Shown: positions 42,732 through 63,533, counted from the stretch's first letter. The stretch is 64,000 nucleotides of DNA from a phage (GCA_009015555.1 GCA_009015555.1_3613.1), one strand, 5' to 3'. Numbers and translations are program-made. The notes: generated by a model from the letters alone, not told the origin.

Positions 42732-42763
42732 CGGTGTTTCCTCATTTGTGTTGGTATGGGGCC

Positions 42764-42792
42764 ATAATACAGGCCCCATTTATTACTGTCAA
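42764..42792 (-). promoter_or_regulatory. sigma70-type promoter with -10 inside a hairpin loop (minus strand)
   Basis: Minus strand TTGACA-17-TATTAT; -10 flanked by GGGGCC / GGCCCC inverted repeat. Confidence 0.65.
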
Positions 42793-44750: not shown

Positions 44751-45314
44751 ATGAACAAAGTATTATCCCCGGCAGAGCAGCTTGCCATGATGATTAAGTT
44801 GGCTGCAACACACCACATGCAACAGTTTGATAAGGGCGGGCGTCCTTATGTTCTGCACGTCCTGAAGGTAATGCACTACCTTAAGGTAAAGGATGACGAC
44901 GAACTGAACTGTATTGCCGTGGGCCACGACATCGTTGAAGATACCCCGGTACAACCCTGCGATTTGGAACGGCTGGGTATGTCCAACAGGGTTATCTCTG
45001 GGATCGCTCGGCTGACCAAGGTAGAAGGTCAGACCCACGGCGAATACCTCAAAGGTGTCCTGGAGAGTTATGATGCCTGCCGTGTTAAGCTGGCAGACCT
45101 GCGTCACAACACCGATATCCGCCGTCTGAAAGGACTGCGTAAAAAGGACTTGCAGCGAATCCAGAAATATCATAAAATGCACATGCAGATTAAAGACATG
45201 ATCGCATGGTACGAAAACAACCATTTGAGCATGTTCTCTTTCCCGGGCGATTATTTTTCTGCCCGTGATGAGCAGGTGAAATCAATCATGGAGAAAGAAT
45301 ACGATGCGGATTAA
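44751..45314 (+). CDS. HD-domain phosphohydrolase, (p)ppGpp-hydrolase (SpoT/RelA HD)-like
   Basis: AGGAG RBS. H..H ... GHDIVEDT, resembling the HD motif of alarmone hydrolases. Confidence 0.65.
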   Translation: MNKVLSPAEQLAMMIKLAATHHMQQFDKGGRPYVLHVLKVMHYLKVKDDDELNCIAVGHDIVEDTPVQPCDLERLGMSNRVISGIARLTKVEGQTHGEYLKGVLESYDACRVKLADLRHNTDIRRLKGLRKKDLQRIQKYHKMHMQIKDMIAWYENNHLSMFSFPGDYFSARDEQVKSIMEKEYDAD

Positions 45315-45661: not shown

Positions 45662-46188
45662 AAAAGACACTAAGCATTAAACCTGTTATCTCCACATACC
45701 TCGGTTGTCCTGACCGATACGGGAGTGCCGAGGTTATGGACGATGGTGATTGGTTGGACCTCGAAGAGGACAAGCAATACCCTATCACTCGTTTGGGTTG
45801 CCTGATCAACGGCAAAGAGCCGGAGGAGACGTACTGCATGTACTACTTCCTCCAAGCAATGAAGCCCGGCTATAAGGGCGATTATCAGGACGGTTGGACG
45901 TGGAACACGTTCTTTACCTGTTCCTGCGGTCACGGCGGTTGCGCCGGGTATCACGAGAACGTCCGTATCCACCGTAAAAAGGCTACCGTCCGGGTCATGG
46001 GTAAGGTATCCGACGGTTATAAAAACGGCGTGGTGGGCACTGGGGAGGCCGTGGTGTACTTCGATAAGAAGGAGTGGGATGCGGTCCGTGATTACTACAT
46101 GGACCTGTTCCGCAAGAACCCGGATGGCATCTTCCAGGATAACGAAATCTTCTTTACCGGGCGTTACGGCCTGAAAGCATGGGGTTGA
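45658..46188 (+). CDS. hypothetical Cys/His-rich protein
   Basis: 176 aa; CSCGHGGCAGYH. Confidence 0.55.
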   Translation: MKKTLSIKPVISTYLGCPDRYGSAEVMDDGDWLDLEEDKQYPITRLGCLINGKEPEETYCMYYFLQAMKPGYKGDYQDGWTWNTFFTCSCGHGGCAGYHENVRIHRKKATVRVMGKVSDGYKNGVVGTGEAVVYFDKKEWDAVRDYYMDLFRKNPDGIFQDNEIFFTGRYGLKAWG

Positions 46189-46190
46189 GA

Positions 46191-46805
46191 ATGAAGCGTA
46201 CCAAAGTAATCAACAAGGCGCGATTCCGTAAATCCTTTCTGGGGTTTGCTGTCGCGGCTGTTGTAACCTTCACCCTGTCCGGCTGTGAGCAAGCTGACGA
46301 AACGGTGAAACTGTACATGAACTCTGAGCAGTGTGCCAAAGAAAGCGGAAATACGCTCGAACAGTGCCAAACTGCGGAGAAAGAGGCCCAGAAGGTTGCC
46401 GCAGAAACGGCACCGAAATTTGGGACGTATGCCGAGTGTTACGAAGAGTTTGGCAGTATGTGCCAACATAACTCGGCGGCTGCTGCCAGTACGGGCGGGG
46501 AATCCCCGTGGATGCCTCTGATGATGGGTTACATGCTGGGCAATATGATGGGGTCAAGTAACTCCTATCACGCAGCACCGATGTACCAGAGCCGTTCTGG
46601 TCAGTGGGTTGACAACAAGGCCCGGTCTTACGACGTGAAGCCGGGGAAATCGTTCAAAGTAACGAAGTCTGCCATTAAGCCAAAGGTTGAGGCACCGCGA
46701 TCCACTTGGTCCGGTTCCAAATCCGGCTTCTCCTCGTCAAAGACAACCACCCGTGGCGGGTTCGGTTCCTCTGTGGGGCGTAGTAGCAGTTCTTTTGGTG
46801 GATAA
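46191..46805 (+). CDS. lipoprotein
   Basis: MKRTKVINKARFRKSFLGFAVAAVVTFTLSGC signal plus lipobox; Gly/Ser-rich C-terminus. Confidence 0.55.
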   Translation: MKRTKVINKARFRKSFLGFAVAAVVTFTLSGCEQADETVKLYMNSEQCAKESGNTLEQCQTAEKEAQKVAAETAPKFGTYAECYEEFGSMCQHNSAAAASTGGESPWMPLMMGYMLGNMMGSSNSYHAAPMYQSRSGQWVDNKARSYDVKPGKSFKVTKSAIKPKVEAPRSTWSGSKSGFSSSKTTTRGGFGSSVGRSSSSFGG

Positions 46806-46810
46806 AAGTA

Positions 46811-46838
46811 TTGACTTATCAGATGGCCCATATATAAT
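46811..46838 (+). promoter_or_regulatory. sigma70-type promoter with -10 inside a palindrome
   Basis: TTGACT-16-TATAAT; the -10 sits in the loop of GGCCCAT...ATGGGCC. Confidence 0.65.
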
Positions 46839-46870
46839 GGGCCTCATTGACAACAAAGAGGAGAAATTCA

Positions 46871-48109
46871 ATGCAGCAGACTTACAAACGTACTGACCAA
46901 ACCATGTTTAAGAAACGAATCAGTATCCGACAGATGGAAGATCTGATCCGCCTTGGTGCCCGTATCGGTAAAACCACTTTCTTCTTCGGTGGTGCAGGTC
47001 TCGGTAAGTCCCAAAAAGTGTTGCAGGTAGCCAACAACATGTTCCCCCACCGCATCGGGGACAACCTGTGTGACGTTCGCCTGTCCGACAAAGAGCCGCA
47101 GGATATTGCAGGTATCCCGGTCCCGGTAACCTATTTCGATCCGGTTCAGGGCAAAGAAGTTACCCGTACTGTGTACGCATGTCCGAGCTTCTGGCCTACA
47201 GACCCGAACTGGGAAGGTATCGTATTCCTGGATGAACTGCCGAACGCAATGCTGGGCACTCAGCACTCTGCGTATCAGGTTATTCTGGACCACGTTGCAG
47301 GTGACCACCGCTTCCCGAAAGGTTGTGTGTTCGTTGGTGCAGGTAACCGTGACACCGATAACGCAGGCACCACCGAAATGCCTGGGCCGCTGGTTAACCG
47401 TATGATCATGGCAGAGGTTGAATACAATCTGGATGTGTGGATTGAGGACTTCGCAGTCCCATTCAAACTGCACCCACACGTAATCGGCTTCCTGAAGCAG
47501 TTCCCGGAGCATTTCTACACTGGTGACGTAGAGAAGCGCTCTACTCCGGTGTTCGCATCACCTCGTCAGTGGAAAACTGTTTCTGACATTCTGTACGATT
47601 ACGAAGTACAGAAGAATGAGTACATCACCGAGATCGCTATCGCGGGTTCTGTTGGTGAAGGTCTGGAAACTGCGGTTCTTGCGTACCACTTACGTGCCGC
47701 TGAACTGCCGAAAGTTGAAGACATCTTCTCCGGTAAGGTGAAAAAGCACGAACTGTCTCGTGAGAAGAACGACCTGGTTTACGTACTGGCACAGACCTGC
47801 TTACGTCAACTGGAGAAAGAAGTGATGGACAATGGCATGAATGATGAGATCTTCATCGAACGTGCTTCTAACTTCCTAAACTTCATGTTCAACAACTATT
47901 ACAAGGCGAACAAAGACACCATGATCGCGCTGATGATTGGTATCTTCCGTGCATCCAATACGGATCAACAGGCGATCCTGAGCCTGAACCCGAAACGTAC
48001 CAAGATGATCCCGGCGCTGCGTAAGAACTGCGAAGCTGTTATGACTATCGTAATGGAGTATCAGACTCGTTATGGTAAAATCATGGAGGATTTCAACGTT
48101 AAAGGTTGA
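46871..48109 (+). CDS. MoxR-type AAA+ ATPase
   Basis: GAGGAG RBS. Walker A GGAGLGKSQ; Walker B VFLDELPNA. Confidence 0.8.
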   Translation: MQQTYKRTDQTMFKKRISIRQMEDLIRLGARIGKTTFFFGGAGLGKSQKVLQVANNMFPHRIGDNLCDVRLSDKEPQDIAGIPVPVTYFDPVQGKEVTRTVYACPSFWPTDPNWEGIVFLDELPNAMLGTQHSAYQVILDHVAGDHRFPKGCVFVGAGNRDTDNAGTTEMPGPLVNRMIMAEVEYNLDVWIEDFAVPFKLHPHVIGFLKQFPEHFYTGDVEKRSTPVFASPRQWKTVSDILYDYEVQKNEYITEIAIAGSVGEGLETAVLAYHLRAAELPKVEDIFSGKVKKHELSREKNDLVYVLAQTCLRQLEKEVMDNGMNDEIFIERASNFLNFMFNNYYKANKDTMIALMIGIFRASNTDQQAILSLNPKRTKMIPALRKNCEAVMTIVMEYQTRYGKIMEDFNVKG

Positions 48110-48133
48110 CATCACAATATAAGCTGATAGAAT
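48106..48133 (+). promoter_or_regulatory. candidate promoter ahead of the VWA gene
   Basis: TTGACA-16-TAGAAT overlapping the MoxR stop codon. Confidence 0.4.
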
Positions 48134-48167
48134 GGGGTCATCTTTCGAGATGGCCCCTTTTTCTTTT
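48134..48167 (+). terminator. terminator-like hairpin / leader stem-loop
   Basis: GGGGTCATC-TTTCGA-GATGGCCCC followed by TTTTTCTTTT, between the MoxR stop and the VWA RBS. Confidence 0.6.
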
Positions 48168-48176
48168 GGAGGAAAT

Positions 48177-49733
48177 ATGTTCGACAATATCATGAGTGCC
48201 GAGGAGCTTGAGCTTGCCAACGCCAATACAGAAGAGGCAGAGAAACTCCTTGAGGCTGCAAGTCTTCAACTGATGCGCTACAAACCTTTCTATGGTGTTA
48301 TGTTGGCGTCAATGCCGATTATCCGTGCCACAGAGACCATCAACACGATGGCTACCAATGGGCGCGACCTGTTCTATTCTCCGGAATTTGTTGCCGGGAT
48401 GTGCGATAAGCGCAAGGCGCTGGTAAAACAGCGCATTGACCAGCAAATCACCGACAAGAAGAAGAATGCTGAGATGAAGTTGATGATCGATGTGTTCTAT
48501 CGTAGAAAGACTGCCCGTGAGGTGGCCTTGGTGTTGGAGCACGAGTGTGATCACGTGGTTTCTGAGCACATGTACCGTGGAAAGGGTTACAACTTCGCGC
48601 TGTTCAACATTGCTGCCGACCACCGTATCAATACGAACGCTGTTCTTAACCACACAACGAATAATGAAATGGGGACAGCGTGGTTCCCTCTGGGTGCCAA
48701 AACAGTGTTCGACCCAGGCAAAGAGTTCGGCTTCATGAAGTGGGCATACTGTGACTTCCAGTATGCAGATATGTATGCCGAGCAGATCTATGAGCTTCTC
48801 GTTAAGCAGACCCCTCCCCCTCCGCCGAGCGGTGGTGGCGGTGGTGAATCGGGAAGCGGAGAGGAAGGTCAAGGTGATTCCGGTGGTCAGGGTAATGGCC
48901 CAATGGGTACTGACCAACACCCGAATGCAGACGGGACCTTCAGTGAGCAAGATGGGGAAGACGATCTGTCCAAAGCAATGGGCACTGACCCGGGGGCTAT
49001 GAAGCCGCTGACCCAGGATCAAAAGAACTATAACGACACGGTAATGCGTCGGGCAATCGAGAACGCTGTTCAGGCAGCGGGCAAGGGAGCGCCAGCGGAT
49101 GCTCGTAAGTTTGTGGAGGAGGCAGGAAAGCCGAAGGTTAACTACCTGCGACTGTTACGTCGGACAATTGAGCGGCTGTTCAAAGACAACGTTTCATACC
49201 GTCGTTTAAACCGCCGTAGCTACTCCCTGACGCGATCTTTACGTCAAGCAGGGCATCTTACTTCCCGGCAGACGATCGGCCTTCCTTCGTACACTAAGGC
49301 TAAGACAATCCGTGCTCACGTATTCTTCGACGTGTCTGGATCTTTTACTGATGATTTGCTGGCTCCGACCAAACGTGAGATCAAGGGCCTGTGCAACCAG
49401 TACGAGGACTTTGAGGTCACTATGGCGGCATGGTCCACAAAGGTTGGTAATATCTGTACTTACACGAAGAAGAACCTGAAGGAGATTGATAACTACAAGA
49501 TCAAGACTACCTACGGGACCGATGTACAGTGCGTGTTCGAATGTCTTGATAATCTTGACAAAGAACCCGATCAGATTGTAATCTATACAGATGGTTACTT
49601 CTCTGATGTGTCCAATGTTAAAAACTGGGCCGAGAAGTATGGCAAGAAGACGCTGTGGATCATCCTGGGCCGTCACGGACCGGAATGGACCCCTCCGTTC
49701 GGCACTGCCATCGACTTCGACAAATATCTGTAA
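48177..49733 (+). CDS. von Willebrand factor A (VWA) domain protein with MIDAS motif
   Basis: GGAGG RBS. MIDAS D-x-S-x-S (VFFDVSGSF) and TDG (IYTDGYF); Pro/Gly-rich linker. Confidence 0.8.
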   Translation: MFDNIMSAEELELANANTEEAEKLLEAASLQLMRYKPFYGVMLASMPIIRATETINTMATNGRDLFYSPEFVAGMCDKRKALVKQRIDQQITDKKKNAEMKLMIDVFYRRKTAREVALVLEHECDHVVSEHMYRGKGYNFALFNIAADHRINTNAVLNHTTNNEMGTAWFPLGAKTVFDPGKEFGFMKWAYCDFQYADMYAEQIYELLVKQTPPPPPSGGGGGESGSGEEGQGDSGGQGNGPMGTDQHPNADGTFSEQDGEDDLSKAMGTDPGAMKPLTQDQKNYNDTVMRRAIENAVQAAGKGAPADARKFVEEAGKPKVNYLRLLRRTIERLFKDNVSYRRLNRRSYSLTRSLRQAGHLTSRQTIGLPSYTKAKTIRAHVFFDVSGSFTDDLLAPTKREIKGLCNQYEDFEVTMAAWSTKVGNICTYTKKNLKEIDNYKIKTTYGTDVQCVFECLDNLDKEPDQIVIYTDGYFSDVSNVKNWAEKYGKKTLWIILGRHGPEWTPPFGTAIDFDKYL

Positions 49734-49741
49734 GGAGAATT

Positions 49742-50119
49742 ATGTCACAGTATGGTTATCAATTAGAGTGTGGTCGCCGGGGGGCGACCCTCTCTGTGTT
49801 CCGTTTGGATAAGGCTGGGCAGGTAGAATACACCTGGCGATCGATGTTCAACAGCCGGGGTATGGAAGTTGTCAGGGCCAATGCCGAGGGTATCGAGACA
49901 GAACTTGCCCATTTTGAGACATTCCTTTACCCGGATCGTGTAGACGAGGATGAACTTGCCTTTGTGGATCTTCTGTCGATGTCTCCGGTAAAAGAGGATC
50001 ATGATTTCATTATGCTGTGCTCTTTCTTGGTTGCCAAGTGGGCAGCGGGACATAACGAAGAGATGTTGCATGATGCTATTCGCCCGACCCTGAAAAAGTG
50101 GGCAGAAAAGACAACATAG
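49742..50119 (+). CDS. hypothetical protein
   Basis: AAGGAG RBS before ATG 49742. Confidence 0.55.
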   Translation: MSQYGYQLECGRRGATLSVFRLDKAGQVEYTWRSMFNSRGMEVVRANAEGIETELAHFETFLYPDRVDEDELAFVDLLSMSPVKEDHDFIMLCSFLVAKWAAGHNEEMLHDAIRPTLKKWAEKTT

Positions 50120-50359
50120 TATGTAGCCCTGAAAGGCACACGAAGTAATAATAGATCTAACACCTTCGCTACGCTCACCCATCCGGGCCTACGGGGTGTT
50201 GATCTGATCTTATAATAAAACTTCCCCACTCACATTCGTTCGGAGTCAGTTTTATTAAATTTCTTCGAAATTGTATTGACACCAACATTTCTCTCATGTA
50301 TCTTTGTGTTCAAGGGAGAGAACTCCCACACACAACAAACAACATGAAGGAGAGATAAT

Positions 50360-50602
50360 ATGAGAGTTCGACAGCATCGCGGTTCACTGGTGGAAAGCCT
50401 GAAGACTGTGAAACAGATCCCAGCCACCAAAGAGGCTCTGGCAGATCATATCAACATGGTGATGGACTTCCCGGTGAAGTTTGGACCAGGCTCGATCAGC
50501 CTGATCTACCAGGGTGTTGATGATCGTATTGGGTGGAAGACCTATATGATCACGGTTGCAGGTCTGGGTGTGTTTGGATATTGTGATGAGGAGGTCAAAT
50601 GA
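50360..50602 (+). CDS. hypothetical protein
   Basis: GAAGGAGAG RBS. Confidence 0.55.
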   Translation: MRVRQHRGSLVESLKTVKQIPATKEALADHINMVMDFPVKFGPGSISLIYQGVDDRIGWKTYMITVAGLGVFGYCDEEVK

Positions 50603-52594: not shown

Positions 52595-52597
52595 TTA

Positions 52598-52625
52598 AAG
52601 GGGTTGACTTCGGTCAACCCCTTTT
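52598..52625 (+). terminator. rho-independent terminator
   Basis: AAAGGGGTTGAC-TTCG-GTCAACCCCTTTT. Confidence 0.8.
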
Positions 52626-52671
52626 GCTATTCTTAGTCCATCGAAACGAAACAGAGAAAAGGAACGACAAG

Positions 52672-55440: not shown

Positions 55441-55564
55441 CAATGTACCAGCACACCCGGCCCCGGTCAAGGGCTAATGTACCATAAATGTTACATTAAG
55501 GGGCTTATGCACCACTAACGGCACATATACGTTACAATACGGGAGTTATCTCTGGTCAAAAAAT

Positions 55565-55735
55565 TTGAGGGTCTCGATCGGTTTTTCGTTTTGCCGATCG
55601 TATTCTCTGCCCGCCGGGCCGGACTGGGGTCTCGGTACAGAAAGCAGGGTCTCGATCGAAAACTCAATTTCGAGATCGTATTCTCGATACAGGTACAGGT
55701 CTCCGCCCGGGGTCTCGATCGAGATTTCATTTTCA
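55565..55735. repeat. three ~45-bp direct repeats GGGTCTCGATCG-N-CGTATTCTC
   Basis: GGGTCTCGATCG at 55569, 55647 and 55710, each followed 14-18 nt later by CGTATTCTC; GCCCGCCGGGCCGG blocks in between. Confidence 0.75.
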
Positions 55736-55769
55736 AAAACGTATTCTCAAAATCTATACAGAGGTGAAA

Positions 55770-55895
55770 ATCGAAATGAGAATTTTTATCATTCACGTTA
55801 GGCCCGAGGCGAAATGAGAATCGTTCTCATTTGCAAATTGAAATGATAATTATTCGCATTTACGTAGTTGAATGAGAATCATTCTCATCTCCAGA
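55770..55895. repeat. four palindromic repeats GAAATGAGAAT-n-ATTCTCATTT
   Basis: Four copies, two of them perfect palindromes (AAATGAGAA-TCG-TTCTCATTT; ATGAGAAT-C-ATTCTCAT). Confidence 0.75.
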
Positions 55896-56164
55896 ATAGC
55901 GGGCACCCCCGGTGATTGTCTCCGGGTCATTTCTCCCCGCTATGTGTATAATATAGCCCAACCCCGGCCCGGTTGCAAGCGTCTTTACAGTTCTTTACAA
56001 AACTATTTTGGACGAACTACCGGCGATCCACCTTCCGACCTGGCCCCGGTGCCCGGTACGTTAGCCCCGCCTTTTCGCCGTGGGGTGGCGTCTCCTCTCC
56101 TGTATGTGTACATTATGGACTAGCCCCGCCGGGCCGTCAATACCAAAACGAAAATAAATTTTTC

Positions 56165-56193
56165 TTGACCTGCCAGGCAAGCCGGGCCACAAT
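56165..56193 (+). promoter_or_regulatory. sigma70-type promoter
   Basis: TTGACC-17-CACAAT ahead of ORF 56223. Confidence 0.55.
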
Positions 56194-56222
56194 GCAGGCA
56201 CACCAACAAAGGAGATCGACCG

Positions 56223-56555
56223 ATGCAACAGACGAAATATTTTATTGAAGGTAACGCCGCCGCCCACGCCGGGCAGATCCGCGCCTGCCGCTACAATAAA
56301 GAAGAGAACCGCCGCGAATGGTTCGCCGGGTTCGATAGTGTGGATCGTGGTTTCGCCGTGTTTAAGATCCTGCCTGGTCCCGGCGCTGTTAAGCTGGCGG
56401 ACCTGGACCCGGTTTATATTGGTGGCGTCAAGCAATGCCAGGATCGCGCCGTCACACTGCAACAGGCGGACCGCGCCGGGCAATATGTGATCTATGATAT
56501 GACAACGGGCAAGCCGTACCAGGAAAGCACAAAATTAAATTACAAAAAGATTTAA
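56223..56555 (+). CDS. small early-type protein (110 aa)
   Basis: AAGGAG RBS; own promoter; no homolog recognised. Confidence 0.6.
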   Translation: MQQTKYFIEGNAAAHAGQIRACRYNKEENRREWFAGFDSVDRGFAVFKILPGPGAVKLADLDPVYIGGVKQCQDRAVTLQQADRAGQYVIYDMTTGKPYQESTKLNYKKI

Positions 56556-56563
56556 AATAATGC

Positions 56564-56592
56564 TTGACGGGGCCAGCGATAGGCCCCATAAT
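56564..56592 (+). promoter_or_regulatory. sigma70 promoter with GGGGCC...GGCCCC spacer hairpin
   Basis: TTGACG-gGGGCCagcgataGGCCC-CATAAT. Confidence 0.75.
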
Positions 56593-56647
56593 TCACCACA
56601 TAGCGACGCACACCGCGCCGCGCTAACAGAAGAGAGAGACCGTTATC

Positions 56648-57088
56648 ATGTTACATTCAATCAATAAAGAACAACGCCTTTACGTTATGCCTTGCGGGAA
56701 TGGCTTTACCTGCTACGGGTTCGACGTGTTAGACAAACGCGCCCGCGCCTTGTCTGCCTGGTACTTTGAACAGAATCCGCAAGCTATCGCACAGATCCCC
56801 GCCCGGATTGGCACTAAAAAACATTTTAAAGCCTGCCAGGCAGTGATCCAGCAGGTGGGCCGCTATTGCACCCATAAGGGCATTAAATGCCCGGTTGAAT
56901 TGTCGCCACAATTAAAAGGCCTGGAGGGTCGCCGGGTTGAGGTTGTCACCATGTACGGCGAAAAGCGCCGCTTTATTGTGGGCCGTTCTACTGGCTGGCT
57001 GGTCACTCATCTGGAGATCCCCCGCGCCAACAGTAGCGGCGGTATGAGCGCCGAAAAACAATACAAATCTGTAACCGTCATAAAATAA
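56648..57088 (+). CDS. small early-type protein (146 aa)
   Basis: Own promoter and a conserved leader shared with ORFs 60528 and 63616. Confidence 0.6.
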   Translation: MLHSINKEQRLYVMPCGNGFTCYGFDVLDKRARALSAWYFEQNPQAIAQIPARIGTKKHFKACQAVIQQVGRYCTHKGIKCPVELSPQLKGLEGRRVEVVTMYGEKRRFIVGRSTGWLVTHLEIPRANSSGGMSAEKQYKSVTVIK

Positions 57089-57101
57089 TTTAAAAATAGT
57101 A

Positions 57102-57130
57102 TTGACACCGGGGCCACCTGGCCCCATACT
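57102..57130 (+). promoter_or_regulatory. sigma70 promoter with spacer hairpin
   Basis: TTGACA-ccGGGGCCacctGGCCC-CATACT. Confidence 0.7.
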
Positions 57131-57180
57131 ACAAACAAGCCCGGCAAATGGTGCCCGGCAAAATCAGAGAGTAAAAGAAA

Positions 57181-57402
57181 ATGGCTAAAGTAACCTATAA
57201 AAAATCACGTGGCATTTCCTCTGTTAACCTGGCGGCGGTTGTAACCCTGCCCGCATACCGTACCCGCGACGAGGCCCGCGCCGTTGCCAGTAAGATCCGC
57301 GCCGCTGGCGTGACCCCGACAACGCCAACCAAAACGGCGGACGGCTGGCGCGTTACCGCAAAGCATAACGGCGGCACACTTTCCCGCAACACTCACCGCT
57401 AA
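57181..57402 (+). CDS. small early-type protein (73 aa)
   Basis: Purine-rich RBS; own promoter. Confidence 0.55.
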   Translation: MAKVTYKKSRGISSVNLAAVVTLPAYRTRDEARAVASKIRAAGVTPTTPTKTADGWRVTAKHNGGTLSRNTHR

Positions 57403-57409
57403 CCAATTG

Positions 57410-57434
57410 CAGGCCCCCGCCGGGGGCCTTTCGT
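57410..57434 (+). terminator. GC hairpin with weak T-tract (possible terminator or processing site)
   Basis: GGCCCCC-GCCG-GGGGCC followed by TTTCGTGT. Confidence 0.4.
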
Positions 57435-57448
57435 GTGGAGTCAGTACC

Positions 57449-57793
57449 ATGACCAAACAGATCCCCGCTGTCCAGATCACGCCGCTTTTCCGTTGCCATA
57501 TCTTTTATGACTGTAATGATCTTGCGGGGCAATGGATCGGCGATACCGATCAACAATATGATTTCCCGGAATGGGACGAACTAAACCGCCGTGTAAGCAA
57601 CGCCGCACACAATGCCGATCCTGATAGCCTGGCGGACGTGGAACACTTCCCCGGCGGGGCCGCTTGCTTTCCTTATATTGAGATCACCGCGCCAACGTGG
57701 GCGCTATGTAAAGCGATGAGCGACGCCGTGATCCGTTGCATCCTGGACAATGGCGGGATCGTCGAACCAAAAGACAACGGAATAAATATTTAA
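57449..57793 (+). CDS. small early-type protein (114 aa)
   Basis: GGAG RBS; no promoter of its own. Confidence 0.5.
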   Translation: MTKQIPAVQITPLFRCHIFYDCNDLAGQWIGDTDQQYDFPEWDELNRRVSNAAHNADPDSLADVEHFPGGAACFPYIEITAPTWALCKAMSDAVIRCILDNGGIVEPKDNGINI

Positions 57794-57812
57794 ATTATTT
57801 TGCTTTTGGGGG

Positions 57813-57841
57813 TTGACGCCCGGCGGCGCTTCCCCCATAAT
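57813..57841 (+). promoter_or_regulatory. sigma70 promoter with GC-rich spacer
   Basis: TTGACG-17-CATAAT, flanked by GGGGG / CCCCC. Confidence 0.7.
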
Positions 57842-57894
57842 ACACCACATAGGGCGACGGAATAACCCGCCGCCAAAAACCAAAAGGTAACAGT

Positions 57895-58134
57895 ATGCAA
57901 ACCGTAATGATTAGCCACCCGGATCACGCTTCAGATTTCTACGCACCGATCTACGCCCCGCTTGAATGGCAACGCCAGGGCCTGCAAAAAACCGCCACGG
58001 GCTATGGCACCAAGATCCCCACGTCCTATATGTTGGACTATCAAGGCAAGCGCCGCCGGATCTATGTTGACCAGTACAGCAACGCCGGGCACACTTACAT
58101 AATGATCAAAGGCGAAAAAATTACAGTTTGCTAA
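57895..58134 (+). CDS. small early-type protein (79 aa)
   Basis: AAAAGG RBS; own promoter. Confidence 0.55.
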   Translation: MQTVMISHPDHASDFYAPIYAPLEWQRQGLQKTATGYGTKIPTSYMLDYQGKRRRIYVDQYSNAGHTYIMIKGEKITVC

Positions 58135-58143
58135 AAATAATTG

Positions 58144-58172
58144 TTGACCGGGGGCCGGGTAGGCCCCATAAT
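58144..58172 (+). promoter_or_regulatory. sigma70 promoter with spacer hairpin
   Basis: TTGACC-gGGGGCCgggtaGGCCC-CATAAT. Confidence 0.75.
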
Positions 58173-58212
58173 ACCAGACATACCAAACAGACAAGAAAAC
58201 GAGGCTTACAAA

Positions 58213-58443
58213 ATGAATCTGACTACTATCGGCGCTAACCAAACCATGATCACCCTGGCCGACGGCTCACAGGTTTTCTTTTCCTACAATACCCCGGTTG
58301 CGGCATACCTGCCCGGCGTGGGCTATGTAGTGACCGCCAAAAAGCACAGCGCCACCACGTCAAAACATGTTAATGCTTGGGCTGGCAAAGGTTGCGACAC
58401 CCGCCCACAGGAATTTTTTGATAATCTCATTAAATCCGCTTGA
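58213..58443 (+). CDS. small early-type protein (76 aa)
   Basis: GAGG RBS; track start 58141 lies inside the promoter. Confidence 0.55.
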   Translation: MNLTTIGANQTMITLADGSQVFFSYNTPVAAYLPGVGYVVTAKKHSATTSKHVNAWAGKGCDTRPQEFFDNLIKSA

Positions 58444-58469
58444 CGTTTGAATTATGCCGGGGTTATAAT
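58440..58469 (+). promoter_or_regulatory. sigma70 promoter with -10 in a hairpin loop
   Basis: TTGACG-18-TATAAT; GCCGGGG-ttataat-TCCCGGC. Confidence 0.7.
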
Positions 58470-58519
58470 TCCCGGCATAGACAAGCGAAAGCAAACAACC
58501 AAACCGAAAGGATCACACA

Positions 58520-58900
58520 ATGAACATTATCAACACTGTAAACGCCGCCGACATCAAAGAAATTTCCGTAACTGGTAAACGTTGGTTCCAGCGTAGCTAC
58601 GGCAACACTTATCACAGCGTAAGCCTGGGGGCGCTGGTATCCGTTGAAGTGGCGGACCGCTTAGGCGCTAACAAGTACGGCAACAAAAGCGGCGACGTGT
58701 GGATCGACCTGGCTTATGTTGGTTTCGCCTATGGTTATGATCGCGGGTTCGAACAAACCGCATTAAGCGCGATGATCGAGGCGGTGAAGGATGCCCCGGC
58801 GGCGTGGCGTGGTATGTCCTACGCTTGCCAGGCGGCGGCGGATCTCGGGGTTGTCTACACTGATAACGTTTATGATGTTAGCCGCAAAAAAGATTTATAA
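58520..58900 (+). CDS. small early-type protein (126 aa)
   Basis: AAAGGA RBS; GYDRGFEQTAL segment loosely resembles GYNREDAAFQEAI in ORF 59264. Confidence 0.6.
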   Translation: MNIINTVNAADIKEISVTGKRWFQRSYGNTYHSVSLGALVSVEVADRLGANKYGNKSGDVWIDLAYVGFAYGYDRGFEQTALSAMIEAVKDAPAAWRGMSYACQAAADLGVVYTDNVYDVSRKKDL

Positions 58901-58906
58901 TTTTGG

Positions 58907-58936
58907 TTGACACGGGGCCGGGTTAGGCCCCATAAT
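58907..58936 (+). promoter_or_regulatory. sigma70 promoter with spacer hairpin
   Basis: TTGACA-cGGGGCCgggttaGGCCC-CATAAT. Confidence 0.75.
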
Positions 58937-58968
58937 ACCCCCACACCAACAGAAAAGAGATTGACACC

Positions 58969-59178
58969 ATGATCAACGAACAGCAAGTAAACGACGTTAA
59001 ACATGAGGCTTACCAGGTGGCGATCCGTAGTGGTTCCCGCGCCGCCTTCAATCTGGTTATTGAGTTGTACCCTGAACAGGCGGAAAATATTTTAATGCAG
59101 GTTTCCGTATTACTGGAAGCAACAAAGCACACCAAATTAAGCGCCGGGATCGATAAGCTGGCAAAAAGTTTAAAATAG
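58969..59178 (+). CDS. small early-type protein (69 aa)
   Basis: AAGAGA RBS; own promoter. Confidence 0.55.
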   Translation: MINEQQVNDVKHEAYQVAIRSGSRAAFNLVIELYPEQAENILMQVSVLLEATKHTKLSAGIDKLAKSLK

Positions 59179-59181
59179 TTG

Positions 59182-59211
59182 TTGACTCTTACCCCGTCCC
59201 GCTGGCATAAT
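59182..59211 (+). promoter_or_regulatory. sigma70 promoter with -10 in a hairpin loop
   Basis: TTGACT-18-CATAAT; GTCCCGCT-ggcataat-AGCGGGAC. Confidence 0.7.
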
Positions 59212-59263
59212 AGCGGGACTGATTAAGAGAAACACCACAAACCAAACGAAGAGAGAAAACATT

Positions 59264-59650
59264 ATGAACGCTACTTACGATTTTTCCAACATGGTTGTAA
59301 CTTCTGGCGACCTGGGCAAGGCCCGTAACCAAAACAATTTTTACAAGGCCGTTCACCTGGTCGGGCTGGTAGACAATGAGATCAAAGATCTGGCGGAGGT
59401 CCGCTTCTACGGCACCGGGAAAACTAACACGGCGATCCTTTGGATTCACTCCCCGATCCTGGGTCTGTATGGTTCGGAGTTTGGCAAGGCTGGCGGCTAT
59501 GGCTATAATCGCGAAGATGCAGCATTTCAGGAGGCGATCCGCAAGATGGGGGTTAAGGGTGACGGATACCATACGCCCCGCGATTTTTTCGAGGCCCTTG
59601 CTAAATATCTTGGGGTTGCTGTATACTCTGTTATTGAATCCCATGCTTAA
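59264..59650 (+). CDS. small early-type protein (128 aa)
   Basis: AAGAGAGAAA RBS; own promoter. Confidence 0.6.
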   Translation: MNATYDFSNMVVTSGDLGKARNQNNFYKAVHLVGLVDNEIKDLAEVRFYGTGKTNTAILWIHSPILGLYGSEFGKAGGYGYNREDAAFQEAIRKMGVKGDGYHTPRDFFEALAKYLGVAVYSVIESHA

Positions 59651-59659
59651 TGGTGTATA

Positions 59660-59971
59660 ATGACAATCGTAACTCTGATTTGTTTAGCACTGGCGGCGCT
59701 TTATTGCGTCGCCACTCACAAAGCCGCACTATGGCGAAAGGGTCAAAAAATGTACGGTTATTTTGAATACGAGTACAAAGGGGAGAAGGGATCAAGCCGG
59801 GACTATGGCGCAATGTGTGAGATCGATATGGTTGGCGCTATGAACTACCGCCAGGAGTTGGGCGCGGTGATCACTTATGAGGTTTACGACTCCTCAGAAG
59901 AGAAGATCGGAGAAATAATCGATCAACGTTACTACATGGAACAACAGCAAAACAAACGCCGGAGAAGATGA
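59660..59971 (+). CDS. hypothetical protein with N-terminal hydrophobic segment (start uncertain)
   Basis: Track ORF; alternative start at MYGYFEYEY; no clear promoter. Confidence 0.4.
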   Translation: MTIVTLICLALAALYCVATHKAALWRKGQKMYGYFEYEYKGEKGSSRDYGAMCEIDMVGAMNYRQELGAVITYEVYDSSEEKIGEIIDQRYYMEQQQNKRRRR

Positions 59972-59973
59972 GA

Positions 59974-60108
59974 ATGATTCACACTAACATTAACCGCGAT
60001 AAACAACCGCGCCGCGCCCGTCTCTCATACGCTGAAGCAGGCGAGCGCCTGCAACGTGAGAAGGCCAACAAACAACAGCGCCGTAAAACGCGCTATAACT
60101 GGGAGTAA
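59974..60108 (+). CDS. tiny Arg/Lys-rich protein (44 aa)
   Basis: Hand-translated MIHTNINRDKQPRRARLSYAEAGERLQREKANKQQRRKTRYNWE; GGAGAAGATGAGA before the ATG. Confidence 0.35.
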   Translation: MIHTNINRDKQPRRARLSYAEAGERLQREKANKQQRRKTRYNWE

Positions 60109-60143
60109 GCGCCCCGGCATGGAAACACCAGGCCAAACAGTTT

Positions 60144-60170
60144 AAACCGCACAGGGGGCCGCTTAGGCCC
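60144..60170 (+). terminator. rho-independent terminator
   Basis: GGGGGCC-GCTTA-GGCCCC followed by TTATTTTTT. Confidence 0.75.
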
Positions 60171-60184
60171 CTTATTTTTTATCT

Positions 60185-60424
60185 ATGGGGTACACAATGC
60201 AAAACCTTTTAACCTTAACAGATTTTATCCGGGCTATGGGGTCCCGTCCGATGGGGTTTAGCGCCCTTTACCTGGTAACCGATGGCAAAGGATACCGCGC
60301 CACCTGCAAAGCGCTTGCCGCCGTTGCGGCCCGCGAAGGGGTCAAGATCTCCACGGGTCAAGCCTTGGTAGTTGACCCGGCGACATTGGCAACGGCGGAG
60401 GCGATCCGGGTCACTGTAAAATAA
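60185..60424 (+). CDS. small early-type protein (75-79 aa)
   Basis: ATG at 60185 or 60197; no promoter of its own. Confidence 0.5.
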   Translation: MGYTMQNLLTLTDFIRAMGSRPMGFSALYLVTDGKGYRATCKALAAVAAREGVKISTGQALVVDPATLATAEAIRVTVK

Positions 60425-60448
60425 TTTAAAATATTTTCATCCTGGGGC

Positions 60449-60477
60449 TTGACGTCCGGCCCCGGTTCCCCCATAAT
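60449..60477 (+). promoter_or_regulatory. sigma70 promoter with GC-rich spacer
   Basis: TTGACG-tccGGCCCCggttcccc-CATAAT. Confidence 0.75.
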
Positions 60478-60527
60478 CTAACCCATAGCGACGCACACCG
60501 CGCCGCACTAACAGAAGAGAGACCGTT

Positions 60528-60962
60528 ATGACTTCCCCAATTTTCCGTATCAAATCAGGTTTATCCGTTTACGCACTGGCTTGCGGCTATATCCAAGAGA
60601 TCGACACAAAGATCACCGGGAAAAATATCCGGGTACAGCTTTTAATGGAACACGGCGCTTTTCACGTCAAGGCACATGATTTTGATGACGTGGGCCGGAT
60701 CGAGTGGGTTGTTGAAGATCAGATCGGCGACGCCCGCACACAATGGAAAGCGCTTGTTAATCAGCTTTTCGGGGAAGTTATCCGCACAATCAAAAAAGAT
60801 AAGCGCTACACCGTAACCCGTGAATTTTCCGGCGACCCTTGCGGGGCCTTGTATGTTACCCGTTTTTGTGGGGAATTTGTAAGCCGTGCCGACACAATCC
60901 CCGGCGCATGGGTAAAAGCCGCCGAACACAACGCCGAAAGAATGAAAAATTATCAAAAATAA
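60528..60962 (+). CDS. small early-type protein (144 aa)
   Basis: Shares the conserved leader with ORFs 56648 and 63616. Confidence 0.6.
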   Translation: MTSPIFRIKSGLSVYALACGYIQEIDTKITGKNIRVQLLMEHGAFHVKAHDFDDVGRIEWVVEDQIGDARTQWKALVNQLFGEVIRTIKKDKRYTVTREFSGDPCGALYVTRFCGEFVSRADTIPGAWVKAAEHNAERMKNYQK

Positions 60963-60964
60963 TT

Positions 60965-60993
60965 GTTGACCGGGGCCGGGTTAGGCCCCATAA
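60965..60993 (+). promoter_or_regulatory. sigma70 promoter with spacer hairpin
   Basis: TTGACC-GGGGCCgggttaGGCCC-CATAAT. Confidence 0.75.
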
Positions 60994-61025
60994 TACCCCC
61001 AGACAAACAAACCGGAGTTAGACCA

Positions 61026-61178
61026 ATGAAACAATATCTTGTAAACATCCCTGGCGTGGCTGGCCCGTTGAAAGTTTATGGCTATGATGAGCAGGACGCA
61101 AGAAAGCGCCTACGTGATCGGGAAGGTTTCGGATCACGCCTCCCACGTGGCACAAAATTTTATTTGCAAAACGCTTGA
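61026..61178 (+). CDS. tiny basic protein (50 aa)
   Basis: GGAG RBS; track start 60963 lies inside the promoter. Confidence 0.45.
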   Translation: MKQYLVNIPGVAGPLKVYGYDEQDARKRLRDREGFGSRLPRGTKFYLQNA

Positions 61179-61203
61179 CGTGTGGTTATGCCGTCGCCTA
61201 TAA
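61174..61203 (+). promoter_or_regulatory. sigma70 promoter with -10 in a hairpin loop
   Basis: TTGACG-18-TATAAT; ATGCCGTC-gcctataat-GACGGCAT. Confidence 0.7.
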
Positions 61204-61257
61204 TGACGGCATAGACAAACGAAAGCAACACCAGACAACCAAACGAGGGTTAAAATT

Positions 61258-61515
61258 ATGTTTGAAGTATTCGCCGGAATGTGTTTTTATGCCGCCGCCG
61301 CTTTAAAACAGTGTGATGATTACACCGTTGAAGCATACGACGATCAGTTAACTTGCGAGATCGTCGCCAACGGCTACCGCCAGGACCCGCGCTGGATTAA
61401 TCCGGCTTGTATCCCTGGGCCGGAAGTTGAAGCAATGCCGGAAGGTGAGCCGCTATTAGAACCGATCCCGGCGGCTAATCACTTGAACGTAAACCCGGCG
61501 CAAAAAGAGTATTAA
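61258..61515 (+). CDS. small early-type acidic protein (85 aa)
   Basis: GAGGG RBS; own promoter. Confidence 0.55.
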   Translation: MFEVFAGMCFYAAAALKQCDDYTVEAYDDQLTCEIVANGYRQDPRWINPACIPGPEVEAMPEGEPLLEPIPAANHLNVNPAQKEY

Positions 61516-61521
61516 AAGCGC

Positions 61522-61551
61522 TTGACGCCGGGACGGTTCCCGGCTTATAAT
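61522..61551 (+). promoter_or_regulatory. sigma70 promoter, CCGGGA...TCCCGG spacer palindrome
   Basis: TTGACG-CCGGGAcggtTCCCGGC-TTATAAT. Confidence 0.8.
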
Positions 61552-61588
61552 CTCAGACATACCAAACAGGCAAATGAGGCCGCAAATC

Positions 61589-61795
61589 ATGACACGTTAT
61601 TTTGTTACTCGCAATGTTTACCGCTTAGAAAATGGCAACGTTTACCGCTGGAGTGGGGCGCGTGGTGGCTGGTTGCACCGTGACGGCTTTACCCCTTCAG
61701 ATCTCACCGATGGGACCGTGATCGGCGCGGTTGAGGTATCAGAAGAGGAAGCAAACCGCCGGATCTCTGAATTGTTAAAAGGCGGTGCAAAATGA
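61589..61795 (+). CDS. small early-type protein (68 aa)
   Basis: GAGG RBS; own promoter. Confidence 0.5.
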   Translation: MTRYFVTRNVYRLENGNVYRWSGARGGWLHRDGFTPSDLTDGTVIGAVEVSEEEANRRISELLKGGAK

Positions 61796-61971
61796 AATCA
61801 TCTTTACTTTTCGCCCTGGTTGACATCGTGATCGGCAATGGTTGCGGGCAACATACATTTATTGCTAACCGCCCCTATCCGCTAAAGTCATTGCAGGCTG
61901 ACGCCCGATTAACAGCGGCACAGATCCGCCGCTACTTTCGGGAACCACACCCGGCAAAGAATGCAAAATAA
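61792..61971 (+). CDS. small protein (59 aa), translationally coupled
   Basis: Hand-translated MKSSLLFALVDIVIGNGCGQHTF..; ATGA overlap. Confidence 0.4.
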   Translation: MKSSLLFALVDIVIGNGCGQHTFIANRPYPLKSLQADARLTAAQIRRYFREPHPAKNAK

Positions 61972-61974
61972 TTG

Positions 61975-62004
61975 TTGACGCCGGGCACCGTCCCGGCTTA
62001 CAAT
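61975..62004 (+). promoter_or_regulatory. sigma70 promoter, GCCGGG...CCCGGC spacer palindrome
   Basis: TTGACG-CCGGGCaccgTCCCGGC-TTACAAT. Confidence 0.75.
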
Positions 62005-62034
62005 GACCCCACACAAACAAACGAGGCTTTAAAC

Positions 62035-62340
62035 ATGCAACAGGCTAACACTCTTTTCATTCTGGCAAACGTAGCGGATCACGTCGTGGCGTCGCTGTCC
62101 AACGTAGCGGGCACCGTCCAGATCATTTGTCGTCATATGGATGACAAAGCGCCGAACCGCTTACAAATCAACGTAGACCGCGACGGGAAAGAATTTGTGA
62201 TCTCTTATGACGCTATCTATAATGGCAACCGGATCACGCAAGCCAAAAGCCAACCGATCCCCGCCGATTTTATCCAGCAAGTGATCGCCGAAATCGTAAA
62301 CGACACGATCCCAGCGGGGGCGCTGTATGAATCCGCATAA
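62035..62340 (+). CDS. small early-type protein (101 aa)
   Basis: GAGG RBS; track start 61972 lies inside the promoter. Confidence 0.55.
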   Translation: MQQANTLFILANVADHVVASLSNVAGTVQIICRHMDDKAPNRLQINVDRDGKEFVISYDAIYNGNRITQAKSQPIPADFIQQVIAEIVNDTIPAGALYESA

Positions 62341-62482
62341 ACTCTTAATCACCAGTTACCCCAGCAAGGCGGATCGCCGTGAAACTTTGGACCGCTTAAC
62401 GCGCTACTATCAGGAGGCCGGGCACAATAAGACAACCGCCCGCGCCCTGGCTAAAAAGCGTTTGCGATTTGGTAAAAATTAG
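62327..62482 (+). CDS. tiny basic protein (51 aa)
   Basis: Hand-translated MNPHKLLITSYPSKADRRETLDRLTRYYQEAGHNKTTARALAKKRLRFGKN; overlaps the upstream gene by 14 nt. Confidence 0.4.
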   Translation: MNPHKLLITSYPSKADRRETLDRLTRYYQEAGHNKTTARALAKKRLRFGKN

Positions 62483-62483
62483 C

Positions 62484-62513
62484 TTGACGCCGGGAACCGT
62501 CCCGGCTTATAAT
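62484..62513 (+). promoter_or_regulatory. sigma70 promoter, GCCGGG...CCCGGC spacer palindrome
   Basis: TTGACG-CCGGGAaccgTCCCGGC-TTATAAT. Confidence 0.8.
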
Positions 62514-62564
62514 CTCTCACATAGCGCGGGGGATGGTCCCCGCATTATCTAAGAGGTTATGAAT

Positions 62565-62717
62565 ATGTTTACTTTGATGACTTGGGAACACGAAACAAGC
62601 TCCCCGATCCGCCGCACTTTTGAAGACCTATGCGCCGCTTATCGCCTGGCGCAAGGCGGTTATTATAAGGCCCAAATCATTGATGAAAACAATGTGATCA
62701 TGTACGAATTTAAATGA
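62565..62717 (+). CDS. tiny protein (50 aa)
   Basis: Hand-translated MFTLMTWEHETSSPIRRTFEDLCAAYRLAQGGYYKAQIIDENNVIMYEFK; AAGAGG RBS 8 nt upstream. Confidence 0.45.
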   Translation: MFTLMTWEHETSSPIRRTFEDLCAAYRLAQGGYYKAQIIDENNVIMYEFK

Positions 62718-62746
62718 TTGACATCCGGCCCGAAAGGGCCGATAAT
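62718..62746 (+). promoter_or_regulatory. sigma70 promoter with spacer hairpin
   Basis: TTGACA-tccGGCCCgaaaGGGCC-GATAAT. Confidence 0.7.
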
Positions 62747-62777
62747 GACCCACACCAACAAAAGAGAGACCGTAAAA

Positions 62778-62984: not shown

Positions 62985-62991
62985 AAAGTAG

Positions 62992-63020: not shown

Positions 63021-63052
63021 ACCCCCACACCAAACGAAATAGGATTCACAAA

Positions 63053-63516: not shown

Positions 63517-63533
63517 TCTTTACAAAACTATTG

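Follow-up and report, generated by a model that had tools for sequence, protein, structure and literature searches.

The 64,000-nt stretch of phage DNA analyzed here (GCA_009015555.1; the window) carries, between positions 46811 and 49733, two adjacent genes that encode a predicted AAA+ ATPase of the MoxR/midasin clade (gene 1) and a putative metallopeptidase–VWA partner (gene 2), together with two promoter-like sites and two hairpins. An earlier note on this DNA had proposed a two-gene pair of a MoxR AAA+ ATPase and a VWA protein with a MIDAS, an adhesion site that depends on a metal ion; profile, fold, and Pfam comparisons and the conserved residues confirm it, and a consensus scan and folding recover both promoter-like sites and both hairpins. 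Sequence and gene order mark the pair as the Certrevirus equivalent of gp24 and gp25 in coliphage N4. The features of the locus are as follows; both ribosome-binding sites were read off the sequence.

46811–46838, plus strand: promoter P1, sigma-70 type, with -35 TTGACT (46811–46816), a 16-nt spacer, and -10 TATAAT (46833–46838)
46825–46843, plus strand: P1 stem-loop GGCCCAT-ATATA-ATGGGCC, with the -10 in its loop and 3' arm
46856–46863, plus strand: ribosome-binding site of gene 1, AAGAGGAG
46871–48109, plus strand: gene 1, 412 amino acids (aa), N4 gp24-like AAA+ ATPase of the MoxR/midasin (helix-2-insert) clade
48106–48133, plus strand: promoter-like P2, with -35 TTGACA over the gene 1 TGA stop, a 16-nt spacer, and an extended -10, TGaTAGAAT
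48134–48167, plus strand: element resembling an intrinsic terminator, with a UUCG-capped 10-bp stem (48134–48157) and then TTTTTCTTTT (48158–48167)
48168–48173, plus strand: ribosome-binding site of gene 2, GGAGGA
48177–49733, plus strand: gene 2, 518 aa, N4 gp25-like, DUF2201_N plus DUF2201
Gene 2, about aa 1–215: N-terminal zincin-like domain, HECDH at aa 122–126 (nt 48540–48554)
Gene 2, aa 216–243: disordered Gly/Ser/Pro/acidic linker
Gene 2, between the linker and the VWA domain: helical, basic middle region
Gene 2, about aa 378–518: C-terminal VWA domain, MIDAS DVSGS at nt 49329–49343, plus T448 and D472
49742–50119, plus strand: downstream gene, 125 aa, 8 nt past gene 2, with its own ribosome-binding site AAGGAG

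The region from 46700 to 49800 is 95–96% identical to the Cronobacter phages PBES02, CR3, and CR8 and 79–94% identical to other Certrevirus members (Vequintavirinae), including the Pectobacterium phages phiTE and CB7. By these identities, the locus is part of a sequenced and annotated phage lineage, the genus Certrevirus, and gene 1 is already labeled 'MoxR' in relatives such as phiTE and CB7. The mechanical open reading frame (ORF) of gene 1 begins at 46847, and the start annotated in CR3, CR8, and PBES02 is 46871. For gene 2, a longer ORF from 48132 would span the hairpin; it is annotated in no relative.

In single-sequence searches, the sole family match of the gene 1 product is PHROG 1297 ('ATPase'; E 2.6e-107). 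The protein alone has no Pfam match even at E≤10, none in NCBIfam, and none by PDB sequence search; its placement in a clade needed a 39-sequence profile and a structure model. Homologs form 71 clusters, nearly all on large phage contigs. Eight residues are invariant in the 39-homolog alignment (K46, S47, D121, E122, N159, R160, R177, and R232), among them those of the Walker A motif GGAGLGKS (K46/S47), the Walker B motif IVFLDE (D121/E122), sensor 1 (N159), the arginine finger (R177 in PLVNRM, directly ahead of strand 178–183), and sensor 2 (R232 in SPRQW). Searched against the PDB, the profile finds midasin AAA domains as its top matches (E 8e-11), ahead of Clp/Hsp100 and p97. The AlphaFold model has a predicted local distance difference test (pLDDT) score of 89.4, and its closest solved structures by Foldseek are NorQ and CbbQ2 (E about 2e-7, target template modeling score 0.60–0.66), both of which are MoxR AAA+ proteins. 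The AAA+ module occupies residues ≈20–250, and residues from about 250 to 412 form an all-alpha C-terminal extension. Within the module, the model places β2 at 66–70, a short helix at 76–80, a hairpin at 82–90/95–103, and β3 at 117–121, a predicted helix-2 insert. A beta-hairpin in helix 2 and an arginine just before strand 5 define the MoxR/dynein-midasin/chelatase clade (PMC7159879), and the association of that clade with VWA partners is found here as well, with the partner gene adjoining gene 1. Scores against Pfam AAA_3 and AAA_5 are below the curated cut-offs; N4 gp24 likewise reaches 20.4 bits against an AAA_5 cut-off of 22. Overall, the predicted fold and the motifs support the gene 1 product as a divergent phage branch of the MoxR-class AAA+ proteins with its catalytic and oligomerization motifs intact. 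Separately, the homolog in Salmonella phage SSBI34 carries the name 'ribosomal protein uS19'.

The gene 2 product matches two Pfam families in order, DUF2201_N ('putative metallopeptidase domain'; 1.2e-22, 81.2 bits versus a cut-off of 23.2) and, C-terminal to it, DUF2201 ('VWA-like domain'; 1.4e-8, 35.3 bits versus a cut-off of 26.4), and both domains are present in all 60 of the 60 homolog clusters. The MIDAS is complete, with D385, S387, S389, T448, and D472 invariant in 31 homologs, and structure-search matches of the Rossmann-like alpha/beta fold are VWA domains. The model (pLDDT 80) is helical in its N-terminal domain and disordered in the linker, and its C-terminal domain is of alpha/beta type. 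In the N-terminal domain, the HExxH residues H122, E123, and H126 are invariant across the 31 homologs and across 13 diverse sequences that include N4, RaK2, and Ka3; H131, nearly invariant, and D148, invariant, are candidate zinc ligands. A profile of this domain gives weak matches to M48-family zincins, of which 3c37 is the best (E 0.0076) and which also include BepA, an HtpX homolog, and the minigluzincin MJ1213; the matches cover a strand and the HExxH active-site helix. The Ka3 homolog of gene 2 matches Peptidase_M48 at E 2e-4. The N-terminal domain is conserved and appears to be a catalytic peptidase. The VWA/MIDAS assignment of the earlier note is borne out by Pfam and by the invariant residues, but its description of a chaperone-like pair leaves out the invariant N-terminal HExxH metallopeptidase domain; because gene 2 also bears this domain, the module is more than a chaperone pair. 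As a matter of annotation, PHROG 1314 and RefSeq name DUF2201 metallopeptidase–VWA proteins (N4 gp25, phiTE_060, KpS8, Ro1, and others) 'HNH endonuclease'. No HNH domain is detectable in the proteins so labeled, and the label therefore looks like a propagated misannotation.

The same two families recur well beyond Certrevirus. N4 gp24 is colinear with gene 1 (BLASTP E 4e-28), and N4 gp25 matches DUF2201_N (3e-87) and DUF2201 (1e-46) and aligns with gene 2 (E 6e-7). In RaK2, where the homologs are annotated 'gp24-like' and 'gp25-like' after coliphage N4, the ATPase is 25% identical to gene 1 (E 2e-37), its gene adjoins the DUF2201 gene, and the partner matches DUF2201_N at 1e-39. The Luzseptimavirus Ka3 ATPase (E 1e-26 versus gene 1) is separated from its DUF2201 gene by one 153-aa ORF. 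An uncultured-phage contig (L020) encodes a DUF2201 protein ≈21% identical to gene 2 with a gp24-like ATPase immediately before it (hhalign 99.9%, E 1e-34). In a tblastn search, 839 phage records contain the ATPase and 350 the partner; they are spread over Vequintavirinae, Schitoviridae, and several groups of jumbo phages. N4-like, RaK2-like jumbo, Certrevirus, and uncultured phages have the two families together, mostly side by side and in the same order. The gene pair is thus a known, widespread, and conserved phage module, and the locus adds no new kind of system. An 'anti-sigma factor' gene of rV5-type phages, upstream of the DUF2201 gene in LL12, was considered as a diverged ATPase and rejected; it has no similarity to the ATPase, and the rV5 ATPase is located elsewhere.

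Both genes have been noted before under other names. In N4-like phages, gp24 ('unknown') and gp25 ('vWFA domain') are 2 of the 14 core genes, and in N4 they are middle transcripts (PMC4193335; PMC2784036); a jumbo-phage MoxR–vWA pair with a metallopeptidase fused to the vWA domain was described in 2021 by Iyer et al. (PMC7824862). In keeping with the obscure role that the earlier note gave the pair, our search of the literature on DUF2201 and on gp24/gp25 function found no experimental work on any member. The window pair shares with N4 gp24/gp25 (Schitoviridae) the two families, their order, their adjacency, and the DUF2201_N plus DUF2201 architecture of gp25; in N4 the pair is expressed before the late genes, and the same timing is presumed here. 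It differs from the N4 pair in sequence (19–24% identity), in the longer C-terminal helical extension of the ATPase, and in two insertions in gene 2, a Lys-rich helix at about aa 74–110 and the Gly/Ser/Pro/acidic linker. The N4 pair is also transcribed by the phage's own RNA polymerase II, whereas the pair here lies downstream of host sigma-70-type promoters. Compared with the group 2.2 jumbo phages (PMC7824862), of which RaK2 is an example, the pair has the same architecture of MoxR and peptidase-fused vWA, and RaK2 also has an intergenic terminator-like hairpin; the genome here, however, is about 150 kb and not jumbo, and the virion-assembly role proposed for those phages is unsupported by the early-gene context here. 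The locus connects what Certrevirus annotations call 'MoxR' with the N4 core genes and with the jumbo-phage architecture. The pair is among the few genes common to N4-like, rV5-like, and several jumbo phages, including many phage-therapy candidates, and the invariant residues of the ATPase motifs, the HExxH, and the MIDAS mark positions worth mutating.

Promoter P1 matches the sigma-70 consensus at 11 of 12 positions, has an A-rich tract (ATAAAAGTA) upstream, and retains its hexamers in 10 of the 11 relatives. It also fits the published Certrevirus early-promoter consensus, AAAA(N3)TGTTGAC(N19)TATAAT (PMC7344957). The P1 hairpin folds at -13.5 kcal/mol (z -3.2), with 0 of 200 shuffles as good, and has no U-run. 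Because the stem-loop lies upstream of the expected start site, it would form only in read-through RNA from upstream. Its GC stem is kept in 8 of the 11 relatives (in POP15, -13.5 kcal/mol, z -4.2). In CB7 and DU_PP_I, it is reduced to a weak AT-rich palindrome, CCAATTATAATTGG (-4 kcal/mol, z -0.3), and in PcCB7V the whole P1 cassette is swapped for a homing endonuclease gene. Compensatory conservation of the P1 hairpin therefore holds only in part, the CB7 and DU_PP_I palindrome being too weak for a stable hairpin.

The anatomy of P1 is shared by many other sites in the window. We scanned for promoter-like sites with at least 10 of 12 consensus matches, which gave 37 in the window, and asked which carry a stem of at least 6 bp, no fewer than 4 of them G-C, lying between the -35 and a point 10 nt beyond the -10. 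Such a stem is present at 17 of the 37 sites versus 4.8% of random 36-nt segments (binomial P 2.5e-13), and in shuffled regions the stem-bearing promoter-like sites average 0.87 and number 4 at most. Promoter-like matches as a whole are not enriched at 42–54 kb (15 versus 11.8±2.7 expected). The stem-bearing sites at 55.5–64 kb belong to repeated 64–100-nt cassettes (repeat families D1–D4, D6, and D7), in which an AT-rich tract is followed by TTGAC, a spacer that holds a GC-rich stem-loop, (C/T)ATAAT, a conserved leader (ACCCCCACACCAA or CATAGCGACGCACACCGCGCCGCGCTAACAGAAGAGAGA), and a Shine-Dalgarno sequence. Examples within the dense arrays at 55500–64000 are:

56542–56605
58122–58185
60944–61007
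61964–62004
63523–63563

The stems of these cassettes are unlike in sequence (GGGGCC…, GCCGGG…, TATGCCGGGG…, GTCCCGCTGG…), and this variation argues for a structural role rather than for a sequence-specific operator. Since 17 of the 37 sites and the repeated cassettes have the same anatomy, P1 is, by its sequence features, a standard cassette of the phage's early-promoter class and not special to the ATPase gene; the hairpin-embedded -10 that the earlier note described is present, but the promoter is not dedicated to the pair. According to the CB7 paper (PMC7344957), each Certrevirus genome has 13–21 sites of a conserved, sigma-70-like promoter for early genes, concentrated among small early ORFs, and stem-loops are mentioned neither there nor in the rV5 paper. 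The closest precedent is the promoter-early stem-loop (PeSL) of T4-like phages, whose stem-loop stops transcripts that arrive from upstream and whose cassettes are recombination sites (PMC2839356, PMC4122927). P1 has the PeSL layout (PMC2839356): upstream of the sigma-70 consensus promoter is an AT-rich tract, a stem-loop covers the -10, and downstream come a Shine-Dalgarno sequence and a start codon. As a class, the sites resemble PeSL cassettes in combining the sigma-70 consensus and AT-rich tract with a G/C-rich stem-loop that either sits between the two hexamers or overlies the -10, in the Shine-Dalgarno sequence and start codon at the 3' end, and in their repetition across a region of small ORFs. 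They differ in that the phage subfamily here is Vequintavirinae and the stem sequences are unrelated, the similarity being one of predicted anatomy, and the intergenic P2 cassette differs further in that its stem-loop is downstream of the -10 and is followed by a U-run. Relative to the literature searched, in which PeSLs have so far been described only in T4-like phages, their likeness in Vequintavirinae appears to be newly pointed out here. This anatomy of the Certrevirus early promoters matters for genome annotation, for engineering, and for the insertion sites of homing endonucleases and new genes.

Three other sites in the window combine or adjoin elements of these kinds. The minus strand at 42756–42792 carries the promoter TTGACA-17-TATTAT, whose -10 is held in a hairpin loop (ATGGGGCC…GGCCCCAT), a P1-like design. 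At 52597–52633, a strong 12-bp terminator hairpin (AAAGGGGTTGACTTCGGTCAACCCCTTT) has a TTGACT -35 in its stem and TATTCT 18 nt downstream, an overlap of terminator and promoter. Three direct repeats of about 40 nt (AGGGTCTCGATCG…CGTATTCTC) with spacings of 78 and 63 nt lie at 55568–55761, just upstream of the promoter-cassette region, and could be iterons or protein-binding sites.

Between the two genes, P2 matches the consensus at 11 of 12 positions and has a TG extension. The hairpin that follows it has 6 GC pairs in its 10-bp stem and a U5CU4 run, and it is the second-best terminator-like site in the 12-kb region scanned. Its centroid structure has a free energy of -17.4 kcal/mol (z -2.8), with 1 of 200 shuffles as good. 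The fold is asymmetric between strands; a U·G pair forms only on the sense strand, and the corresponding C·A mismatch gives a poorer fold on the minus strand. In 8 of 12 genomes, the window included, TTGACA, a 16–17-nt spacer, TGnTA(G/A)AAT, the hairpin, the U-run, and GGAGGAAATATG are all kept. In the group of phiTE, CB7, PcCB7V, and DU_PP_I, a 7-nt deletion abolishes the P2 -10, and the stem carries two double substitutions of G-C to A-U and still folds (-14.4 kcal/mol, z -2.95). Because the phiTE group keeps the hairpin and loses the P2 -10, selection seems to have retained the terminator rather than the promoter. An Rfam scan of 46000–50500 gave only two chance-level matches, far below the gathering scores.

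The arrangement of P2 and the hairpin would separate two classes of transcript. As the -10 ends at 48133, the P2 start is expected near 48140, inside the 5' arm, and an RNA that starts at 48140 is unable to form the hairpin (z -0.08). P1 transcripts would therefore be attenuated and P2 transcripts not. Similar elements occur at the same spacer in other lineages. RaK2 has a 12-bp hairpin with a U-run between its two genes (-15.9 kcal/mol, z -5.2). In metagenomic contig L020 (4925–5003), the spacer between the ATPase and the distant DUF2201 gene has TATAAT in the loop of GGTGTAA…TTACACC (z -3.4), so a hairpin-embedded -10 at this spacer recurs outside Certrevirus. The N4 gp24/gp25 intergenic region has no sigma-70 promoter or terminator, as expected from the use by N4 of its own polymerase for these genes. 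The terminator-like stem-loop and second hexamer pair that had been described between the genes are thus present, and the attenuated expression of the VWA partner proposed with them is plausible, given the compensatory changes, the hairpin kept without P2 in the phiTE group, and the analogous RaK2 hairpin. We infer that the terminator between the genes probably reduces the output of the VWA partner relative to the ATPase.

The hairpins could instead act as DNA-level or recombination elements, or as RNA processing or stabilizing sites, with the promoter–terminator logic incidental, an explanation that we regard as doubtful. PeSLs mediate recombination and indels in T4-like phages (PMC2839356, PMC4122927), and in some relatives free-standing homing endonuclease genes have entered both of the cassettes that flank gene 1, with one upstream of it in PcCB7V and others at two positions in the spacer; the window phage has none at these sites. 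Five relatives carry HNH_3 homing endonuclease genes in the spacer between gene 1 and gene 2, and these insertions appear to be independent, since they occupy two different positions and the genes are only 42% identical in their cores. The HNH_3 genes are located as follows:

L001 (phiTE): 5442–5954
L003 (P7_Pc): 2904–3401
L008 (PcCB7V): 1–300 and 1808–2083
L011 (CB7): 1647–2159

The P1 hairpin, without a U-run and dispensable in CB7 and DU_PP_I, also suits such an explanation. The intergenic hairpin, in contrast, has a canonical U-run, a sense-only U·G pair, and pairing kept through double substitutions, and for one PeSL stem-loop, termination was shown to equal that of rrnB T1 (PMC2839356).

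For the pair as a whole, we lean somewhat towards reading it as a gp24/gp25 module that forms an ATP-driven, MIDAS-targeted remodeling-and-cleavage machine with early expression. By analogy with NorQ/NorD, CbbQ/CbbO, and midasin, a hexamer of the gene 1 product would dock one gene 2 protein through its VWA domain, and the MIDAS metal would capture an acidic residue of a specific substrate. ATP hydrolysis would then pull or twist the linker and so expose or position the substrate for the attached peptidase, such that the module would be a split, substrate-specific, ATP-dependent protease or remodeler. The likely mechanistic template is NorQ/NorD and CbbQ/CbbO, whose ATPases are the best structural matches of gene 1; in the NorQ6:NorD1 complex, a VWA finger enters the pore, the MIDAS binds the target, and a linker is remodeled (PMC9976466, PMC13036017). 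Gene 2 resembles NorD in its layout of N-terminal domain, disordered linker, and C-terminal MIDAS VWA domain. Unlike these systems, the window proteins are not detectable members of the corresponding sequence families, no VWA finger is evident in the gene 2 model, and a peptidase here replaces the N-terminal domains of NorD and CbbO. On the expression side, the intergenic hairpin and U-run would attenuate P1 transcripts and leave less partner mRNA than ATPase mRNA, and P2 transcripts would begin inside the 5' arm of the hairpin and escape termination. Lower synthesis of the partner would fit a hexamer-to-monomer complex, as NorQ:NorD is 6:1 (PMC9976466).

The same structural likeness could point to the insertion of a metal cofactor or the activation of an enzyme in the style of NorQ/NorD, CbbQ/CbbO, or CobS/CobT, in which the HExxH would bind a metal instead of cleaving peptides and the client would be a metalloenzyme of the phage or the host, for example one of nucleotide metabolism. 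Among solved structures, NorQ and CbbQ are nearest in fold to gene 1, the VWA domain of gene 2 resembles those of NorD and BchD, and in N4 and RaK2 the pair is beside dCTP deaminase and thymidylate synthase genes. We nevertheless consider this function quite improbable. Neither protein matches a CobS, CobT, CbbQ_C, or NorD family in Pfam or NCBIfam, the N-terminus of gene 2 aligns with the M48 zincin active-site helix, as the match of the Ka3 homolog to Peptidase_M48 also indicates, and no neighboring metalloenzyme is conserved across the lineages compared. A CobS/CobT identity as such, an assignment to porphyrin metabolism that the earlier note had named as an example of a refuting result, is rejected; gene 2 is DUF2201_N plus DUF2201, and gene 1 matches no Pfam family. 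The resemblance to cobaltochelatase is confined to an AAA+ ATPase of the same broad clade and a VWA-containing partner, and the HExxH peptidase domain of gene 2 is lacking in CobT. Neither protein matches a PADLOC defense model, and the pair is thus not a captured known defense module.

If the remodeling-and-cleavage machine acts as proposed, it would do so early or in mid infection on a host protein or a non-virion phage protein, as the host-sigma-70 early promoter and the block of small early genes suggest. A serious rival is virion maturation, in which the ATPase–VWA pair would act as an assembly chaperone for structural proteins and the peptidase would process them. For jumbo phages, Iyer et al. 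proposed a role in the assembly and processing of virions, by analogy with p618/p892 of Acidianus two-tailed virus (PMC7824862), and that proposal concerns the same domain architecture; in addition, roseophage RPP1 has four virion-protein genes near its gp24/gp25 homologs (PMC4193335). The pair in the window, however, lies behind a sigma-70 early-type promoter, among small early genes and far from the structural module, and the N4 genes are middle transcripts beside nucleotide-metabolism and replication genes. CB7_108 and CB7_110 are also absent from the main text of the CB7 paper, which reports a virion proteome, a weak point given that a chaperone need not be in virions. In N4, RaK2, and Ka3 alike, the pair adjoins nucleotide-metabolism or replication genes, which favors an early or middle non-structural client over virion maturation, and we regard the latter as rather unlikely.

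Several observations weigh against the remodeling-and-cleavage machine with early expression and an attenuated partner. The fold of the gene 2 N-terminal domain went unmatched in two structure searches, in which VWA matches filled both lists, and its sequence matches are weak, M48-type hits no better than E 0.0076. The VWA model is compact and has no evident NorD-like finger. The association of the two genes is also looser in some phages, with rV5-like phages carrying the ATPase and partner genes ≈4 kb apart on opposite strands (divergent) and two distant ATPase homologs having no DUF2201 gene within 6 kb. Early timing is suggested by promoter type and gene context only. Finally, P2 scores as a strong promoter, and the net partner:ATPase ratio could therefore equal or exceed parity.

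A more specific form of this reading, which we offer tentatively and think unlikely in full, is that the module is a split ATP-dependent protease used early against a specific host protein, in takeover or counter-defense, with targeting by the MIDAS and with the terminator setting a ratio of roughly 6:1 ATPase to partner. If true, an early host-targeting protease would supply a function for 2 of the 14 genes in the N4-like core and for a module found in hundreds of large lytic phages.

The 125-aa gene downstream sits after gene 2 in every Certrevirus examined and is probably co-transcribed with it. Its product matches PHROG 12385 (E 1.3e-86), has no match in a Pfam search, and could be a third component of the module. 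On the other side of the pair, the gene just upstream (46179–46805) stops 5 nt short of the P1 -35. Its product is a DUF1190 protein (E 8e-35) whose N-terminus resembles that of a lipoprotein and whose C-terminus is rich in Gly and Ser, and the POP15 homolog is annotated as a putative lipoprotein. A conserved tie between this gene and the module was considered and rejected, as the nearby 'lipoprotein' of N4, gp20, is an SPFH/Band 7 protein with no similarity to it. N4 (with gp20) and a distant 220-kb contig each have an SPFH/Band 7 gene within a few genes of the gp24-type ATPase, which may be coincidence. Further upstream, the gene at 44751–45314 is annotated 'metal dependent phosphohydrolase' in CR3 and P7_Pc; its product has no Pfam match at E≤0.01, contains HD-like motifs (…GHDIVEDT…), and may be a nucleotide or alarmone hydrolase.

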